Shown here: positions 2,434 through 14,236 of the stretch, piece by piece
Layout of the letters: each line of letters starts with the position of its first letter
Position numbering within the stretch: the stretch's first letter is position 1
The notes under the pieces: model-generated
The model's input: only the letters and a program-made list of their open reading frames with translations
The model's database searches: none
What the model was told of the DNA's origin: nothing
Position numbers and translations under genes: made by a program
Virus record (IMG/VR): IMGVR_UViG_2579779116_000016
Location: 1-42,915 of that record
DNA: 42,915 nucleotides
Source: a virus
Taxonomy: Duplodnaviria > Heunggongvirae > Uroviricota > Caudoviricetes
Strand: one strand, 5' to 3'

Positions 2434-4650
2434 TTATTGTATGTTTGTTATCTCTCCTGATACCATTGCTTTTATTGTCTGCCCGCCAGCTGGCTCTCCT
2501 TTGAGTACGAATCCCACCCTGCTAGTGTTTGAACCAAAAAGAAGATCTGCCCCTTTAGTTTGGTCGTAGAAAGTGTATGCATTGACGGTCCTCACCACTT
2601 GATCTGATGTTGTCACCCCAATTAATGATGTTTGACCATCCCTCTTAAGAAGTCCAGATAGTCCTGTAGATCTGCGCAAAGCGGCTGATATAGATATTGC
2701 GTAACCATCATATCCTGAAGGGGTTGATAGTTGAGCAAATCTTAGGAATTCAATACTTTGACCAGCTGCAGCAGTTGCATAGAGTCCATTGAAAATGAAT
2801 TTAGTAAATGATTGTCCACTTACGGTGGTGTCATAGCCTCTCTCGCAGGATAACGATTTAAACGCATATGTTGCATTTAGGAGTATTGTATTTTGTGATC
2901 TGGTAAGATTGTTTATCTTCATTGAAGGGAATTTCGACATATCTAGAATTCCATTTATCGATCCATTTCTGTCTGCTATGTCTATCTTTGTTTGTGTGTC
3001 TGTGTAATTGTTCTCAATGGTAAAAGATGAGAAAACACTAGGGTTGTCAATTTGATGGAATGTTTGACCAAAGTAATTACCGGAAATTGTGAGAGATTCT
3101 GGCTGGTTGTAGATGTATAGCTTGCTCTTTTCTACGTACATCCCAGTTACGCTTACGCCCTTGCAGTTTCCTATCTGTATTTCTCCGGACTCTACAGTGG
3201 AGTTGGTCAGGCTGATTCCCCATGTGTCAACGTAGACATCCTTCCCTGACTCGTGAGCATAGATAAGAGCGCTATCAAGTGTTAGCGTGTTTCCTGATAT
3301 TCCTGTTATTAACTTCGCATCAAGTCCCGCGTTTCCCTGAATCTCTATTATGTCCCACTTTAAAAAACCAGAAGCGCTTGCAACTGTTATCGAGTTGGCA
3401 CCTGCGGCAACATCTCTGGAAAGCGTCGTCTTTGGTGCATTGATGTTTATCGCTGCGGATCCAGATTGTCCGCTAGCTTGCAGGTAGCATCCCCCATGGA
3501 GTTTCACGGAGTTACCCCTCACTCTTACACCATTGAGGGTTCTTACTGAGCCGTTGATGGTTCCTGCAGTTTTCCCTGTGAACTCACCAACGATGCAGCA
3601 GATATCGACATCTGAAGATCGATGATTTACTGACTTGAAATCCCAGTGTCCATAAAACGCGTTAAGTACAACCCTGTCAGCGGCTAATGCCCCACGGGTT
3701 GAGACGCCGCCATCAATTGTAAATCCATCAACAATCTGGTCATGGTGAAGGCGGTCTCTCGATCTATCTCTTGGGTCAATGATTATATGGTGCATTGAGA
3801 TATCAGAAGATGTTGAGTTGAGGACTGTGCCGTCCTGACCAGCTCCAGACCACCTAAATCCTCTCTTGTCTACATCGAGCGTGAAACCTCCTATGCTGTA
3901 AACTCCGGCAGGGAAAGAAAGGCTCCTCATGTTTGCCTGCGCACGAGCAACACGGTTCCCCTCATCAACAGCTGCGACGTTTTCTACATCAGTGCCGCCA
4001 AACTCGAATGACGCATAGTTCATGTCAGGGAAACATACCAGATTGGCGTATTTACCTGCGGGCAACGTCAGGCTAAAAGTATTCAGATCCTGATTGGAGG
4101 AAATAACCCATTCTGATACGTTTTTTACTCCTTTCCCGTTCACGTACGTTCTGACGTGCATTCCATCTGGTACGCCACTAAAGTCTGTTTCCAGTAACTG
4201 TGTTACAGTTTCTATAGTGTAAATACGTCGAGACAAGGCGTTAGCAACGGTAGTGTCTAATGGGTCACCAACAAGAATTGATCCTGTACTCTCTCCGAGT
4301 CTTTGCTCAAGGCGATCAGGGTCATACTTCAGCACATTAGGAAAATAGAACTGCTGTGCACCATACGCATCATAAACAGCCATAGAATGGCCTTGCACAG
4401 TTACGAATTTGGCAATCTGTCCGTTATATACAGGATATCCAGCAGCGTTAATAATAATTGGTTGCGAAACAGGAACGTGAGAACCGTCTTCGTTCTCCAC
4501 ATAAACCTGAATCTGGTTTTCAGGATTTACAGGGTCAGTGTCAATTTTTCCGATATAAATTTTACCATTGGCTACGGCTTTAAAAGAACGCGCCATAGTG
4601 AAGAGTTGCGAAGGCATCGATACGATCACATTGGCTGTAATGTCTGTCAT
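2434..4650 (-). CDS. Tailspike protein: P22-type N-terminal head-binding domain fused to a distinct receptor-binding beta-helix domain
   Basis: 738-aa ORF; first ~110 residues ([11 protein letters not shown]...[33 protein letters not shown]...[12 protein letters not shown]...VLKYDPD) closely resemble the P22 gp9 head-binding domain; remainder is Gly/Ser/Asn-rich repeat typical of beta-helix tailspikes. Confidence 0.9.
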
Positions 4651-4860: not shown

Positions 4861-5796
4861 TCAGTAATTATGTACTGAAGGAGGTAATTCTTTATTCTTA
4901 AGTCTCATCCATGCGGAAAGATTCGTTGGTCCGTCTGGCTCATTAATATCAACATCTCGTGTGTGATTGATTAAAACGTCTCTCGCCATTCCGATAACAT
5001 ACGAGAACTCATGACCGTAGTCGTAGCATCTGCCTGAATAGTTCGATTGAATTTGTTTTAGCGCCGGATACAGTTCGCGGAATAATGCCTGTGAGCGGTT
5101 GGCATAATCCCATAACCATACAAGGCTGTTTGCTTCTTTTGCAGAAAGCTCGTTTGCTTTCTTCTCTTGTTTGCCGATTAACTCGCCTTCAAGCGGAACG
5201 CGAGCTGCAAGTGACAGAGCTTCGGTAAACTGCTCATCGCTGATTTCTTTGTATGAACACCCAAAATGAGATTTCAGTGACGACCACATGGTAATCATTG
5301 CCTTCGCCTGTTTTTCTTTTGGCAGAGACTGACCGCGACTCATGACGAGTTGTTTAATGGCTTCCTGCTGTTCAGTGGTGATTTTACCCGGCAACGCCTT
5401 TTTAGCTTTGCGTGGGTTAACTACATGGCCTTTAGTCCAGTAGTCATGCAGCACGCTAAAGCATTCCTCCTGGTACTGAATCAGTTTATCACGGATGTCA
5501 GCACGAACTTTCTCAGGGTTGATGCTGAACAGCCATCCATTTAACTTCTTCAAAGGAAGGCAGAGTAGCTTACGAAGCTTCCCATCAGCGGCAACCATGT
5601 TCATATGAACACAGTTGAATTTGCTAATCTGCTTCATGAGTTTTGTTTGCTGCGTTGACCAGCTCATTCCAAGGTTTTCAACGATTGGCTTCATCGCAAC
5701 GTATGCAACTCCGGCAGCCATGGCGGTGATAATTTGCTGACCGTTGAATGGTACGTAAGAGGTGTTCACTGCTTCTAAAATTGCTATACTATTCAT
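4861..5796 (-). CDS. ant: Antirepressor Ant (P22 immI type)
   Basis: ORF track gives 4861..5862 from a TTG; ATG at 5796 with GGAGA RBS gives [21 protein letters not shown]..., matching my recollection of the P22 Ant N-terminus; sits downstream of arc as in P22. Confidence 0.85.
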
Positions 5797-5864
5797 GTTG
5801 GTTTTTCTCCACGGATTTACTGACAACCGAAGCCCTGACTGTTCCCGCAGTTGGGGCTTCAACT

Positions 5865-6026
5865 TTACGCGCCAATGCGCCCTTCCCTCTTAAAGCTTTC
5901 CATTACTCTCTGATAAATCTCAGAGTTAACAGACCGACCATTCTCTTCCGCCACCTTGCGTACCAAATCTAATACTTCTTTAGGCCACCGCAAATTGAAC
6001 TGCGGCATCTTGCTCATTCCTTTCAT
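5865..6026 (-). CDS. arc: Arc repressor (ribbon-helix-helix)
   Basis: 53-aa product [53 protein letters not shown], essentially P22 Arc; the track ORF is an upstream in-frame extension. Confidence 0.95.
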
Positions 6027-6040
6027 ATTCACCTCACAAT

Positions 6041-6061
6041 ATAGGTCCACCGTGGACCTAT
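6041..6061. promoter_or_regulatory. Mnt operator (Omnt)-like perfect palindrome in the arc/mnt divergent promoter region
   Basis: ATAGGTCCACCGTGGACCTAT is a perfect odd-centred palindrome between arc and mnt. Confidence 0.6.
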
Positions 6062-6068
6062 TGAGAAT

Positions 6069-6089
6069 ATAGTAGAGTGCTTCTATCAT
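6069..6089. promoter_or_regulatory. Arc operator (Oarc)-like partially symmetric site
   Basis: ATAGTAGAGTGCTTCTATCAT between Omnt and mnt; resembles the P22 arc operator by recollection. Confidence 0.5.
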
Positions 6090-6116
6090 GTCAATACACT
6101 AACTTGGAGTGATGGC

Positions 6117-6368
6117 ATGGCTAGAGATGATCCGCACTTTAACTTCCGTATGCCTATGGAAGTAAGGGAGAAATTAAAATTCAGGGCGGAGGCGAATGGG
6201 AGATCAATGAACTCCGAGTTGTTACAAATCGTCCAAGATGCTCTATCAAAACCATCGCCTGTGACTGGATATCGTGACGATGCAGAACGACTCGCTGATG
6301 AGCAGTCAGATCTTGTTAAGAAGATGGTGTTTGATACGCTGAAGGATTTGTACAAAAAAACCACCTGA
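6117..6368 (+). CDS. mnt: Mnt repressor (maintenance of lysogeny, ribbon-helix-helix)
   Basis: 83-aa product MARDDPHFNFRMPMEVREKLKFRAEANGRSMNSELLQIVQDAL..., essentially P22 Mnt. Confidence 0.95.
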   Translation: MARDDPHFNFRMPMEVREKLKFRAEANGRSMNSELLQIVQDALSKPSPVTGYRDDAERLADEQSDLVKKMVFDTLKDLYKKTT

Positions 6369-6467
6369 CGGTGAGTTAATTTTTGCATTTACCTGGGCCA
6401 TATTGACTAATTATAAAATGAGATCAATATTTAATCGCCCAATAACTGGTGTATGTTGAGGTATATC

Positions 6468-6647
6468 ATGGCGAAAAAACCAGGTGAAAACACAGGAAAA
6501 AACGGCGGAATATACCAAGAAGTTGGCCCACGCGGCGGTAAGAAAGACAATTTTGCCACCGTCAAGGACAACGAAAGGCTTCCACCAACAACAAAGCCAG
6601 GTCATGGCTGGGTATTGGATAAGCGAACTCCAGACAGCAAAAAGTAA
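6468..6647 (+). CDS. Small basic Gly/Lys-rich protein (59 aa), immI-adjacent, function unknown
   Basis: ATG at 6468 inside track ORF 6453..6647; product MAKKPGENTGKNGGIYQEVGPRGGKK...PPTTKPGHGWVLDKRTPDSKK; P22 has a 59-codon ORF at this position by recollection. Confidence 0.55.
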   Translation: MAKKPGENTGKNGGIYQEVGPRGGKKDNFATVKDNERLPPTTKPGHGWVLDKRTPDSKK

Positions 6648-6660
6648 TAATCAAGCCGGG

Positions 6661-7026
6661 TCACTCCGGCTTTTTGATATGTCGCTCGCAGAACTCAACA
6701 AGCCTGCTCATTAAGTAGCAGTAAGTCTCGTTGGCTCTTCCTGGTTCAACATCAACACCTACCCTTGAGCAGATATCGAATGCCATGTGAGCGCACTCAT
6801 GGGCAATAGTAGATAGTTTGCCATTGAACACGCCTATCACATGCAAAACACCATTCTCGCTACTCATTGTATGAGACGCTCCGTTGGCGTCCGAGTCATG
6901 CACGTCAACGCCAAGTTTTTGATGCAGGCGTTGCCATTCTGGAAAGTCTCTACAAAACACAATTGTACCGCTCTCAAAGAGCGGTACGAGCATCTTTGGT
7001 ACGTTTCCAATGTTAACTTTTTTCAT
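6661..7026 (-). CDS. Small HExxH zinc-metallopeptidase-like protein (ImmA/IrrE, DUF955-like motif)
   Basis: 121-aa ORF with ATG; motif KLSTIAHECAHMAFD resembles the (F)T(I/L)AHE(L/C)(G/A)H signature of ImmA/IrrE peptidases, with Glu residues 14 and 20 positions after the second His. Confidence 0.5.
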   Translation of the reverse strand: MKKVNIGNVPKMLVPLFESGTIVFCRDFPEWQRLHQKLGVDVHDSDANGASHTMSSENGVLHVIGVFNGKLSTIAHECAHMAFDICSRVGVDVEPGRANETYCYLMSRLVEFCERHIKKPE

Positions 7027-7060
7027 GGTATCCTGCGCAAAACTAAGGAGAGTTAATTAT

Positions 7061-7546
7061 ATGAAAAAATCACTGTTAATTATCCCGCTTCTGCTGGCTG
7101 GGTGCGCAAAAGTAAGCGACTATCAGGCAAGTTGCGAGCAACGCTATCCAAAGCTTAGCGATATGGCTAATTGCCTTGATGCCAGCTTGAAGAACGACTC
7201 TCGCATGGCATCAGCACCAACACCTAAGCTGTATGTCCTTGCTGCGAAGATGCTCGGGCAAGGTGTCGATGAAGGCAAGATAAGTGACACACAGGCAAGA
7301 CTTGAACTTCAGAATCTTTATGTTCAATTACAAAGCCAAGAACAAGCACAACAAATAGCACAAAGCCAAGCATTCCAGCAGGCTTTATTGAATTATCAGG
7401 CTGTAAACACAATGCAAGCGATCGAGCAAAAAGCGCGCCAGCCTGTTATAACTCAACCTTACCCAACACGCGTTGACACATATACAAACTGCAATTCAGG
7501 ATTTGGAAACACGGTAACATGCAACAGTAGCAGTAATATCAGATAG
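7061..7546 (+). CDS. Lipoprotein with Gln-rich coiled-coil region (cargo in the sieA slot); candidate superinfection-exclusion factor
   Basis: ATG at 7061 with AAGGAG RBS; signal peptide and lipobox MKKSLLIIPLLLAGC; Q-rich segment QLQSQEQAQQIAQSQAFQQALLNYQ; C-terminal Cys/Asn/Ser-rich tail. Confidence 0.65.
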   Translation: MKKSLLIIPLLLAGCAKVSDYQASCEQRYPKLSDMANCLDASLKNDSRMASAPTPKLYVLAAKMLGQGVDEGKISDTQARLELQNLYVQLQSQEQAQQIAQSQAFQQALLNYQAVNTMQAIEQKARQPVITQPYPTRVDTYTNCNSGFGNTVTCNSSSNIR

Positions 7547-7559
7547 TTATATCTTATTT

Positions 7560-9407
7560 TTATTGCTGTTCTGCTGTAATTTGGCTTGAAAGTATAGGGC
7601 GTATCGCATTTGCAGCATTATTTAGCGCTCTTTCATAGGCTGGTGTTCCTGCTTTGGTGTTTGCCAAACGTAAGAGAGCATTCCTTGCTGCTTTTGACTC
7701 ATACAAGCGCATCATTGCACCGAAACCAGCCTCAAGCCCCATTGATACGCCAAGAGTCGCAGTTGCGCCAATCGTCCTTATCCTGTTGGCTTGCGATTGC
7801 CCCGTCTGTGTTACCACATTTGCGGTGTCTGACCTTGCTGTTTGCTGTAGAACTTCATGAAGAGCATCAAGCTCTTTCATGTGCTTTCCAGAAAAAATAG
7901 TGTTGTAAATTTCACCGCCTGACTGAGATTTCAGCTTATTAACTTCAGTGATGAACTTGGCTGGAGAGTCACCGGACTTTTCCGCTATTTTGCTGACGTA
8001 AGCCGCACGCATAGCATCTTTTCCTTTATCATCCAATGCGCTCCAGATTCGTTTCACGTCAGATGGTTTTCTGCTTAATACAACGGCATTTATAAGTTCA
8101 GGACTGGCTTCACTACTTGCCTTATTGAGCTTGTTAGCAATGTTTTTATTAAGCACCTTATTATAAACGTTTGCATAATCGGAATTTGCTTTAAGGTATT
8201 TTGCTGCGTCTGAAGCCCCGAGGTTTTTAGCAACTGCGTTACGAAGGTCTTTTGACATTGCATTCTCTACCATATTGGTAGCTGCTTTTGCCTGGTTAGG
8301 GAAGACCATAGCATCTCCCTGAACATTAGATCTAAATGCCGTTCTGTGCTGACGCAGGAGATCAAACGTAACATCCAAATCAGTTGCAGGGTTTGCTAAT
8401 TCTTCACGTAGGTTACGCAAGGATGTAAGCAGGCTTTGATTGGCTGAAGTACCAAGCCGTTCCTGTCTTGCGATCGCTGTATTCAGAGCATTCATGGTAT
8501 TTGTAGTATCAACTGCGGCATTACCCATTTTATTGGTGACGTCATTGATAACAGCGCCAGCAGCATCCTTCCGCCCCCTTAACGTGGTGGTCAGAGATTT
8601 CACCACATCATCAGGGTTGTACTCACCAAAACGGTCAAAATAATTACTTACCAGCTTACTACGCGTTGCATATTGCTCAGCTCGCTTTGAGCCTGTCCCG
8701 AGCAAAGCCCCCTCGGCATCCTGAGTAATGCCACGAGTGAAAGCATTTTTCGGCGTGATAACATCAGATGTCATTGGTGTCACGCCCATCGATTCTGATG
8801 TGGCAATTTTCTTCGCCACTTCTGGCGCAATATCACCTTTTATAGCCGTTATTCCACGCCCTATTCCCTTTGCTGCTGCGGAAAGAACACCCTGAGCGGC
8901 AAGGTTAACTCCGGCATTTTTAGCTGCATTTTGTGCGAAATCGCCTTTCTGATTTGCGGCCTCTGCCAGTGATCCAATAGCCATGCTTCCTGCCGTTCCA
9001 ACGCCTGGAACTAAATACCCGCCAATTGTTTCTCCAACTTGAGCGTAGGGGTCTGTCGGTCTGTCTACTGGACGATAAACATCATCCAAAACTTTTGGCC
9101 CACCAAGCCCCTGACTGATTGCATTAATCAGACTTGCGCCACCCTGCAATACGTCAAATGGTATGTTTACCAGACCACGACCAGCCTGTTCTGCAATTTG
9201 CCCTGCACTTTGACCACCAGTGAGCCAATCGCCAGCTTGTTGCATCAATGATGGGTCTTCCCGTGTTGGTGCATTATTGGCCTGATTAACTGTTTGTTGC
9301 TGAACAGCCTGACCAGCAAAATACTCATCAATGGCGGTGCCAATATCTTCGGTGCTCGTACCATCAGGAAAGGTAAATGTCTTACCGTTTGCAGTTACTT
9401 TCATCAT
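7560..9407 (-). CDS. Ejection (internal virion) protein, P22 gp16 equivalent
   Basis: 615-aa ORF, Ala/Gly/Gln-rich; size and position immediately after the gp20 equivalent match P22 gene 16. Confidence 0.85.
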
Positions 9408-12818: not shown

Positions 12819-14236
12819 TACTCAATCCTTATCTGGCAGCCAGACAAAGTGACAGGTGACTTCGTGATAACGCGCAATTTGAAGCCAATGTTTTTCCTGA
12901 TGCGCCCTACTTTCTTCCACAAAACGCGTTTGTCGTAAACGAACGGTTCATTCTGCTCAATCATCTGCTCACGACCGTAATTGATGCCGTCAGTGGTTGC
13001 AGAGAGGAACAGGCGGTCGGCGTACTGAGCTACGCCAGTGGATGATTCCACCTCCAGATCGAAGCATCTGGCGTTATCCGCTTTGAACAGTGGAGTAAAC
13101 AACAGGTGTTCCTGTTGAAGCCCATACTGGCTGCTGATATCGAACTGCAATTTGCCGGTAACCGATTCCAGCTTATCGCCGCACGTTATCTGATTGCCTT
13201 CGTAAATGAAGTCGATAGCGCGGTACACATCGTCATACAAGCCAGTTTTCAACACACACCATTGCGGACCATTGGCGCTTGAAGATGCGTCGTACACGAG
13301 GACGTGACGCGGAAGATGGATAATCAGCAATTCATGAGCATCAAACCGCAGCGATTCCATCACACCATCAGCCAGTTCATCAGCAGTGTAGGAGCGGAGG
13401 ATTTTCTCAATGCTCGCGCTGGCGATTGGTGACACCTGACCGGAGCCGATGATATACACAGACGGCGCACCCGTTGCCGGATTGCTGATGAACGCATGCG
13501 AATCAGCAAACGGCGTTTTGCAGTAAGTCCCGGCGATGCCTTTTTGCACCATCAGTGATGGCTGTGCGACATACAAAGCAGCACCAACGGTGGTTGCGCC
13601 AGTCAGGGAGAAATATTCAATAGTCGATGAACCAAAGCAGACGATGAAGTCTCGCCATGTCCCGATACCGATGATGCCGTCCGGCTGAGACTCGGCACGA
13701 TATTGTGCGCTGTAACGGTCAGGATGCGATTCGTCTTCAAGGTCAGTGATAAACCATGAATCAGTGCCGTCTTTTGACCACGCATAACGCCCACGTAAGC
13801 GCGTAATGTCGCGAACTGAACCTAACTCATACTGAGTGAATCCACTGTCTGTAGGCCAGTTTGAGACGGTTTTAACCGTGCCATCATAGCGATACTCGAC
13901 CAGTTGACCATTAACGCCTACCGCCTGTGATGTCCGACCATGCGCCATTGATACACGACCACTTCCGGCAACGTCACCGACTTCACTTTCTCCTTTGTAC
14001 AGCTTGCCACCACACACACGATAAACAGCACTCTGCGCCATGTTGTACTCGACGCCGCGAGATACACCGTTCACATCAGAGCGTTTGGCAATGCCCGGGA
14101 ATGAGCGAATATATCCGCTGCTGTTGAGTATTTCTTTGGGCGTAGCCAGCATATTCACTGGCAGATAGTCGATATAATCGGCGTTTCGGAAGTCTTTGCC
14201 GACACCTTTCATAAGCGGAAGTTGCTGAATCGGCAT
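12818..14236 (-). CDS. Tail accessory / head-completion protein, P22 gp10 equivalent
   Basis: 472-aa ORF; size and synteny (between gp4 and gp26 equivalents). Confidence 0.85.

Follow-up and report, generated by a model that had tools for sequence, protein, structure and literature searches.

What takes the place of sieA when a P22-like prophage does not carry it? In phage P22 the gene for the exclusion protein SieA lies between mnt, a repressor gene of the immunity I (immI) region, and gene 16, which encodes an ejection protein. The question is raised here by a stretch of 42,915 nucleotides (nt), called the window below, which is IMG/VR virus record IMGVR_UViG_2579779116_000016 from position 1 to 42,915. 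It belongs to a P22-like prophage of Escherichia coli, and it matches E. coli chromosomes at 99.7-100%. Between mnt and gene 16 the window has three genes: orf59a, for a basic protein of 59 amino acids (aa); hkcC, which runs in the other direction and encodes a 121-aa protein with an HExxH motif; and a gene for a 161-aa lipoprotein. The original prediction took these together as a three-gene cargo cluster in the sieA slot. All three open reading frames (ORFs) are genuine, as selection shows for hkcC and orf59a, and as 90 clusters of homologues and invariant cysteines show for the lipoprotein. Going by the comparison with P22, only the lipoprotein gene replaces sieA; orf59a and hkcC belong to P22 too.

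This can be read from the alignment with the P22 record BK000583, where a megablast match covers window positions 6000-7054 at 97.8%. There, mnt and orf59a are followed by the annotated 'mnt terminator', by a gap of some 320 bp without annotation, and then by the sieA promoter (PsieA) and sieA. The gap contains an intact ORF whose product differs from the 121-aa protein of the window by one amino acid. It is unannotated in both BK000583 and NC_002371. In HK620 and UAB_Phi20 it is named hkcC, and it is also annotated in SE1Spa. Given that the match runs to 7054, P22 itself carries orf59a and an intact hkcC. The claim that three other genes stand where P22 has sieA therefore holds for the lipoprotein gene and fails for the other two. 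The pairs hkcC/hkcD of HK620 and orf64/orf65 of SE1Spa are the same genes as the pair in the window (98-99% aa identity), and they have been carried as 'unknown' in annotations since 2000-2001. Even in P22, for all its textbook status, two conserved genes beside the immunity I region lack an assigned function, and one of them was overlooked in the reference annotation.

The window and P22 are identical across PsieA (alignment columns 57-87) and across the AAGGAG Shine-Dalgarno sequence, and diverge directly after it. The left junction of the cassette is thus at about 7051-7054, where P22 homology stops just past the Shine-Dalgarno. On this alignment, the sieA coding sequence is exactly replaced by the lipoprotein gene, behind sieA's own expression signals. 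Compared across genomes, the interval as a whole, which lies on the immI flank of P22, is not one module; it is made up as a mosaic of three units that assort independently. The explanation that accounts best for the locus, and that is held here to be moderately probable, combines four things: this mosaic, a lipoprotein that would act in exclusion, a zincin-type HkcC that would be made late, and a pairing of hkcC with an orf59a that would be expressed in the lysogen.

The slot itself was surveyed by an IMG/VR scan, which yielded 80 prophage loci with an hkcC that is 98-100% identical; these form the basis of all slot counts. In 79 of the 79 loci with enough upstream sequence, the slot gene lies on the opposite strand, and its start is 26-35 nt away from the ATG of hkcC, nearly always 31 or 35. 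At least 12 unrelated gene types occupy the slot among these 80 close prophages, and nearly all encode envelope proteins. The lipoprotein is the commonest allele with 17 loci. A 129-aa secreted protein with a signal peptide has 12, and SieA 11. The other occupants are two different coiled-coil proteins of 109-113 aa with an N-terminal transmembrane segment (one of them the HK620 type), small proteins of 62 and 75 aa with two transmembrane segments, a 149-aa transmembrane protein, signal-peptide proteins of 68 and 99 aa, and one cytoplasmic-looking protein of 140 aa. When the 80 loci were searched with tblastn, SieA and the lipoprotein matched mutually exclusive sets. Morganella prophages show the same alternatives, with the lipoprotein in locus L104 and a 149/155-aa transmembrane type in locus L105.

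The lipoprotein of the window fits this SieA-slot class by position: 31-35 nt from the hkcC ATG, after PsieA and the Shine-Dalgarno, and convergent with gene 16. The divergent start codons are 34 nt apart (7027-7060), exactly as had been predicted.

Other features that had been predicted for the lipoprotein are also present, namely the lipobox (LLAG before the cysteine), the AAGGAG Shine-Dalgarno and a Gln-rich stretch. Its N-terminus, MKKSLLIIPLLLAG followed by the cysteine, has a basic n-region, a hydrophobic h-region and a lipobox, which is the pattern of a bacterial lipoprotein. The pattern used was [LVI][ASTG][GA]C, and the assignment was judged on this sequence pattern. Across 46 aligned sequences (45 homologues and the window protein), Cys15, Cys25, Cys38 and Cys154 are invariant, as is Ala16, and Gly14 is found in at least 90%. 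The four invariant cysteines mean that the protein fits an exported, disulfide-bonded one. In E. coli, lipoproteins without an aspartate at position +2 after the lipidated cysteine are sorted to the outer membrane. Here the +2 residue is the invariant alanine (CAKVSDYQ), with no aspartate, as outer-membrane sorting requires. The protein would thus be exported, lipid-modified at Cys15 and placed in the outer membrane on its periplasmic side.

Database searches place it in a family of its own. It matches phrog_6067, a family without assigned function, from end to end, and the homologues in its 90 clusters are all from Enterobacterales. Scans against Pfam, NCBIfam and PADLOC gave no significant match for any of the three proteins; none matched the anti-phage defence profiles of PADLOC-DB 2.0 at E ≤ 1. 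A profile search of the PDB with the lipoprotein returned only coiled-coil-like noise. In the AlphaFold2 (AF2) model, residues ~18-96 form a helical domain; beyond it come a Gln-rich helix of low confidence and a tail that contains cysteine and is disordered.

The family was found only in P22-like prophages. In 11 of 11 contexts its gene lies tail to tail with a gene 16 homologue and converges on the 3' end of that gene; the genera covered are Escherichia, Salmonella, Proteus, Yersinia, Morganella, Tatumella and Klebsiella. These contexts include the phages Gally, 720R6, VSe13 and Brookers, and prophages of Yersinia ruckeri, Morganella, Tatumella and Klebsiella aerogenes. The gene 16 types next to it differ widely (609-885 aa, with or without an SLT domain), and hkcC and orf59a are present or absent depending on the context. 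Of 5,426 complete E. coli genomes, 186 (3.4%) carry the lipoprotein, including the adherent-invasive strain LF82.

Two of these contexts have a further gene nearby. In Gally, the LF82 prophage, a different lipoprotein gene of 139 aa (MKRIIGVVAGAILLSGCATIVGDE..., locus L003, 1964-2383) is found where the window has hkcC and orf59a. With that strand and position, two lipoprotein genes flank each other divergently. In the Tatumella P22-like prophage, mnt and the gene for the lipoprotein are separated by a gene of the Rap1a family (PF18602; locus L114, 3104-3442), whose members are immunity proteins of type VI secretion.

What might the lipoprotein do? P22 SieA blocks DNA delivery by way of the ejection proteins, and the gene 16 product is of its target class (Leavitt et al. 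2024, PMC10883804). In the related prophage BTP1, an antisense exclusion RNA called STnc6030 is made from the interval between gene 16 and the tailspike gene, and excludes BTP1 (PMC7067206). No other products of the interval have been characterised, and SieA and STnc6030 are both exclusion factors. The lipoprotein sits at the SieA position, behind the same signals, and the alternatives in the slot are nearly all envelope proteins, so that an exclusion role can reasonably be drawn from its position, and is plausible. It inherits PsieA and the Shine-Dalgarno, and is therefore most likely expressed from the prophage by way of these signals, taken over from sieA. It would most likely protect the lysogen by disturbing envelope penetration or DNA delivery of P22-like phages, and so be a functional analogue of SieA, not a homologue. 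It is a credible candidate exclusion factor.

The likeness to P22 SieA consists of the same slot, promoter and Shine-Dalgarno, the convergence with gene 16, the presumed expression from the prophage and an envelope product. The differences lie in the proteins. They share no sequence similarity: the window protein has neither homology to SieA types A-C nor their polytopic topology, which leaves it outside the SieA family. SieA is a polytopic inner-membrane protein, whereas the window protein is a lipoprotein, its sorting signal is of the outer-membrane type, and its periplasmic domains are predicted to be helical.

Other models are Cor of lambdoid and T1-like phages and Llp of T5, which are outer-membrane lipoproteins that block FhuA-dependent phages. 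Like these, the window protein is a small phage or prophage lipoprotein with a predicted place on the periplasmic side of the outer membrane, and it could act likewise, by inactivating an entry route from the inside. Unlike these, it is about twice as long, and nothing in it matched Llp. Against the Cor family (phrog_1119) it scores E = 0.092 over residues 1-29, which is the signal peptide only, and this does not make it a member. The phages that carry the lipoprotein presumably use O-antigen and ejection proteins, not FhuA.

Several observations weigh against this reading of the lipoprotein. The protein is unrelated to Cor, Llp and SieA. Its AF2 model is of moderate confidence, with a predicted local distance difference test score (pLDDT) of 62 overall and about 80 for residues 20-95. 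The assignment of PsieA depends on the P22 annotation, and a simple sigma-70 consensus scan of the window did not detect this promoter. Finally, a role in host conversion or fitness fits the position equally well.

That last role is the alternative that survives best. The lipoprotein would then be a lysogenic-conversion or host fitness factor, for example in serum resistance as with Bor or TraT, or in envelope stress, and not an exclusion protein. A prophage-expressed lipoprotein of outer-membrane type with no homology to known exclusion proteins could well be one. Its presence in complete E. coli genomes at the frequency given above, LF82 among them, points the same way, and so do the assorted secreted proteins without assigned role that the slot also houses. 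Restriction of the family to P22-like prophages argues against such a factor, as does the fact that it abuts the 3' end of gene 16 in every context seen. The record of the interval, where both characterised products exclude phage, is a further argument. Conversion is thus rather unlikely, and an exclusion protein is preferred.

Exclusion might also come in part from the transcript. There is no intrinsic terminator directly after the lipoprotein stop codon, which is 13 nt from the stop of gene 16 (7547-7559). In a scan that included 7560-8300, the nearest weak candidates were more than 300 nt inside gene 16. RNA from PsieA could therefore run antisense into the 3' end of gene 16, like STnc6030 of BTP1, for which escape single-nucleotide polymorphisms map to the 3' end of the gene 16 homologue (PMC7067206). 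Such an RNA would act on near-identical phages only, and the lipoprotein is conserved alongside very different gene 16 types. It is also under clear purifying selection: the lipobox and the cysteine pattern are kept at 51-88% identity across genera. A contribution from antisense RNA is accordingly held to be improbable, and the protein itself remains the preferred agent of exclusion.

The cassettes at the sieA position form a ready list of candidate superinfection-exclusion factors against short-tailed phages. SieA is the only slot protein with a mechanism that has been studied. Escape mutants against the others could probe other steps in the way the ejection proteins form the trans-envelope channel.

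The second gene, hkcC, does not vary with the slot. Compared to P22 it has 6 synonymous and 1 nonsynonymous differences, for a ratio of nonsynonymous to synonymous substitution rates (dN/dS) of 0.04. Compared to distant homologues, its synonymous sites are saturated, and the proportion of nonsynonymous differences (pN) is 0.24-0.40 (0.11-0.40 for hkcC and orf59a jointly). The protein matches phrog_1365. Around a close clade of 32 clusters, a profile search of 1.84 billion representatives found 546 clusters at E ≤ 1e-3. Nearly all are stand-alone proteins of about 120 aa. The 121-aa protein had been called unusually short for its presumed family; in its actual family this is the normal length. 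The literature on hkcC, orf59a, orf129 and YjzC yielded annotation tables only, and no functional work was found there.

The HExxH motif that had been predicted is present, in the sequence TIAHECAHMAFD, where it reads HECAH. It is found in 141 of 145 family members; those without it are truncated or frameshifted, apart from one HKAAH variant. Among 123 diverse relatives, H76, E77 and H80 are kept in all, and E100 in 122. Loss of HExxH among homologues, which the original prediction had named as grounds for refutation, is thus not seen. Tyr104 is found in 118 and Asn99 in 92, and G49 and G90 are also nearly invariant. E100, which forms an N-E motif with Asn99, comes 20 residues past H80 and begins the predicted helix 100-116. 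With its conserved HExxH, on the predicted helix 71-88, and a conserved candidate for the third metal ligand, the protein has the general pattern of the zincin metallopeptidases. The AF2 model of HkcC has a pLDDT of 89 and a predicted template modelling score (pTM) of 0.83. Its order of elements, β-β-α-β-β-α(HExxH)-α(E100), fits a zincin as well.

Structural searches lead to other small phage proteins. Foldseek against BFVD gave 26 matches at E ≤ 1e-3, with template modelling (TM) scores up to 0.83. All are small proteins of phages (Pseudomonas N4-like, Ralstonia, Erwinia, Eggerthella, crAss-like and others), and the few that have a name are called 'SprT-like' (TM up to 0.72) or 'Metalloprotease'. 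PDB searches found no structural relative among solved structures. The family profile gave a weak match to myroilysin across the HExxH (E = 9e-4), with astacin also weak; the hkcC clade alone gave nothing in the PDB sequence-profile search. Pfam and NCBIfam scans showed lantibiotic noise on the HECAH of HkcC. In per-member Pfam scans, SprT-like came up below the gathering threshold in 25 of 83 relatives, with a best E of 1e-4. HkcC itself has no match to SprT-like (PF10263). No relevant literature was found on SprT-like anti-defence proteins in prophages.

Judging by the conserved residues and the predicted fold, HkcC is very probably a minimal zincin of an unclassified phage family, and catalytic. 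It would be a cytoplasmic zinc metallopeptidase with H76, H80 and E100 as ligands and E77 as catalytic base. Its profile matches point weakly to a distant relationship with SprT-like proteins, not to membership. With the SprT-like zincins (PF10263: SprT, Spartan and Wss1-type proteins, and the protease domain of ArdC) it shares an HExxH on a helix after a small β-sheet. In SprT and Spartan the third ligand is a histidine. The candidate in HkcC is Glu100; it also has no zinc-ribbon or DNA-binding extension, and no solved SprT-type structure was recovered with it. Gluzincins combine HExxH with a glutamate after the second histidine, in an N-E motif. HkcC has this ligand pattern, with the glutamate 20 residues on, and a minimal size, like thermolysin-type gluzincins and the archaeal 'minigluzincins' of ~105-110 aa. 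It differs from these in having no sequence or structural match to the solved ones, so the resemblance is one of motif only. With about 550 clusters across phages and no Pfam model, the HkcC family may be among the smallest self-contained zinc-peptidase scaffolds.

Some members are longer. The protein of mEp044 has 194 aa (locus L015, 2501-3085), those of 'nenneke' and 'Deimos-Minion' have 215 aa, and the BFVD matches include proteins of 150-215 aa. These C-terminal extensions might point to substrates or partners.

The original prediction had proposed ImmA/IrrE (Peptidase_M78) as the family of HkcC. Members of that family likewise have an HExxH and a downstream glutamate, and are found on mobile elements. 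A stronger version of this idea would make HkcC an anti-repressor protease that cleaves Mnt, Arc or C2 to control the immI switch, and its location in the immunity I region, 290 nt from mnt, invites the thought. Profile, fold and neighbour tests rule out membership. HkcC does not match M78 (PF06114) at E ≤ 1, and one of 83 relatives does so, at E = 0.099. BFVD proteins named IrrE are hit only at E = 0.04 with TM 0.28-0.41, and PDB searches gave no IrrE-like fold. There is no helix-turn-helix gene of ImmR or DdrO type next to hkcC, which agrees with what had been said of its surroundings: its neighbours are orf59a and the cassette, and mnt and arc encode ribbon-helix-helix proteins. Relatives of HkcC are also found among the tail and lysis genes of phages without immI, and one is in a virulent N4-like phage. 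The anti-repressor role is very improbable, and an unclassified minimal zincin is the preferred reading of HkcC.

These other settings may say something on expression. Paralogues with 38-40% identity (ε34 gp70, ST64T Orf-129, L Orf129 and ST104 orf47) have the lysis genes on one side and the Dec/terminase genes on the other, and in mEp044-type lambdoid phages a gene of the family follows the lysis genes. A quite divergent member in Xenorhabdus comes after a lysis cassette. Homologues of 57-63% identity lie between the tail chaperone and tape-measure genes in siphovirus prophages of Klebsiella oxytoca and Rosenbergiella and from a metagenome. In every interpretable case (P22-like, siphovirus and Xenorhabdus prophages) the gene is in the direction of the late operon, which in the window is that of gene 16. 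The 31-35 nt upstream of hkcC adjoin the variable cassette, so a conserved private promoter cannot fit there. With late-operon sense and no room for its own promoter, hkcC is probably made by read-through of the late operon, and would appear late in lytic growth.

The recurrent partner of hkcC, going by gene order, is orf59a and not the lipoprotein. The pair is found in 69 of the 80 close prophages. In Klebsiella, Rosenbergiella and metagenomic siphovirus prophages, an orf59a homologue of 59-60 aa is convergent to hkcC at a distance of 5-30 nt. The convergent pair also occurs at this spacing in Morganella P22-like prophages, in a Xenorhabdus prophage and in a lineage with 43% HkcC identity, and it was seen in two metagenomic lineages. 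In the window, the hairpin between the two genes overlaps the hkcC stop and last codons (KKPE) on the other strand, and its T-run serves the orf59a transcript. Equivalent hairpins of different sequence are found between both genes in loci L005 and L008.

The orf59a protein has 13 lysines and arginines against 7 aspartates and glutamates. It matches phrog_3202 (E = 7e-31) and has 108 homologue clusters. Compared to P22 there are 3 synonymous and 1 nonsynonymous differences (dN/dS 0.09), which indicates purifying selection. Against Pfam YjzC (PF14168) it scores 19.4 bits where the cut-off is 25 (E = 0.0013, 47 of 55 profile positions). In distant relatives, PF14168 comes up as a precomputed match, UniRef homologues from Morganella and Xenorhabdus are named 'YjzC family protein', and tblastn with orf59a also matches YjzC genes of Gram-positive phages. 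Going by these matches, orf59a would probably encode a divergent YjzC-family protein; its own Pfam score is below the cut-off.

Pairing with an HExxH gene was also sought among the Gram-positive phages and rejected: the YjzC-family gene of Clostridium phage phiCT9441A has no HExxH neighbour. That gene (locus L101, 1486-1653) lies antisense within a structural (late) block, like orf59a in enterobacterial prophages. On the contigs of the 43%-identity pair, a 212-aa PF18894 'PhageMetallopep' gene lies directly beyond orf59a (L008, 1330-1968; L009, 1229-1867). It is a second metallopeptidase-like gene beside the pair, unrelated to hkcC.

Exceptions to the pairing weigh against its being fixed. In 11 of the 80 close prophages a 74-aa membrane protein replaces orf59a, orf59a is alone in S. 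bongori and in compost contigs, and many HkcC-family genes have no orf59a beside them, among them those of ε34, ST64T, L, mEp044 and phCDa. On gene order, then, the link is strong, not obligate. The gene of the 74-aa predicted membrane protein (MISAILSVLLASLFIGVVLISPMP...) is convergent with hkcC; the loci are L019, L020, L057-L060, L073, L076, L083 and L087. Its presence in the place of orf59a means that this position may be a second small cassette site.

In P22, mnt is the upstream gene of a transcript from Pmnt that is made in the lysogen. The P22 mnt terminator follows orf59a, which puts orf59a on this lysogenic transcript, as mapped from the P22 annotation. Orf59a would thus be a small, basic, YjzC-like protein made in the lysogen. 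The pair therefore sets a lysogen-expressed gene against a late-sense gene, and this conserved opposition is a testable lead on function. The most economical hypothesis, which is speculation, is that HkcC and Orf59a probably interact as peptidase and substrate, or as peptidase and inhibitor.

One can go further than this. The pair might be a 'state-switch' module, so far unrecognised, that is passed around among podovirus and siphovirus prophages. Orf59a would act in the lysogen, for instance by modulating the host or as an effector of defence or of exclusion. HkcC, made only on the lytic switch, would destroy or counteract it, or the roles would be the other way round. The two would then provide self-immunity by proteolysis, in logic like BstA/aba or SieB/Esc. 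Taken together with the idea that the slot is a genus-spanning cassette site and that each of its at least 12 envelope proteins is a distinct blocker of P22-type DNA delivery, it is an improbable proposition.

Little is left of the notion that the lipoprotein and its divergent neighbour HkcC form a two-component exclusion module, as the original prediction had it. The arrangement does suggest one: the start codons are close together, PsieA overlaps the 5' end of hkcC, and the three-gene layout recurs at ~60% identity in the Morganella prophage of locus L104. Yet hkcC, at least 98% identical, stands beside at least 12 unrelated cassettes, including SieA in P22. In Gally, Brookers, Y. ruckeri, Tatumella and K. 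aerogenes the lipoprotein gene has no hkcC beside it, and only 19 E. coli genomes have all three genes, versus the 186 with the lipoprotein. HkcC has no signal peptide, whereas the lipoprotein is predicted to be exported. Since the two assort independently, an obligate module is ruled out, and even a looser one is hardly to be expected. That the 121-aa ORF is a chance, unexpressed antisense ORF in the spacer between orf59a and PsieA, as its absence from BK000583/NC_002371 and its overlap with a promoter and a terminator of the other strand might suggest, is ruled out at the level of sequence by the selection on it, the 546-cluster family with invariant catalytic residues, the confident predicted fold and the homologues in unrelated genomic settings.

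What is of interest at this locus is the multi-allelic cassette slot, the widespread unclassified mini-zincin family and the conserved convergent pair of hkcC and orf59a. The features are collected in Table 1.

Table 1. Features around the sieA position, in window coordinates; for the gene arc, the order among its neighbours is given.
Feature	Position	Strand	Description	Basis
Tailspike gene	2434-4650	-	738 aa	ORF
ant	4861-5862	-		ORF
arc			between ant and mnt in gene order	
mnt	6117..6368	+	immI maintenance repressor	ORF; P22 annotation mapped via the 97.8% match
orf59a (P22 orf59a; HK620 'HkcD')	6468..6647	+	59-aa basic Gly/Pro/Lys-rich YjzC-like protein	
mnt-orf59a terminator	6653..6675	+	hairpin AAGCCGG-GTCACT-CCGGCTT, then T-run	terminator scan; P22 'mnt terminator'
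hkcC	6661..7026	-	121-aa cytoplasmic mini zinc-metallopeptidase-like protein (predicted)	phrog_1365, E = 2e-39
E100 codon	6727..6729	-	candidate third metal ligand	conservation among relatives
HExxH codons	6787..6801	-	H76-E77-C78-A79-H80 (HECAH), predicted helix	read from sequence
PsieA	6996..7026	+	promoter, overlaps first 10 hkcC codons	identity with P22 annotation 13861-13891
Shine-Dalgarno	7045..7050	+	AAGGAG, common to P22 sieA	alignment of window and P22
Lipoprotein cassette gene	7061..7546	+	161 aa, phrog_6067	sequence and family matches
Lipoprotein Cys15 codon	7103-7105	+	cysteine of the lipobox LLAG-C	
Gene 16	7560..9407	-	ejection/DNA-transfer protein; right border of the slot	ORF; P22 annotation

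Two minor observations remain. Just upstream of PsieA, within hkcC codons 14-21 (6965-6987), there is a near-perfect palindrome of 23 nt with a 10-bp stem, GTACCGCTCTTTGAGAGCGGTAC, with a single mismatch in the P22 copy. The idea of a conserved element was rejected, since the palindrome is seen in the P22/E. coli lineage only; Klebsiella, Morganella and metagenomic hkcC homologues that encode the same VPLFESG motif lack it. It could be due to chance, or it could belong specifically to the P22-type PsieA region, as an operator or a terminator-like element.

The tailspike has a P22-type N-terminal head-binding domain and a different receptor-binding part, which suggests an O-antigen specificity differing from that of P22.

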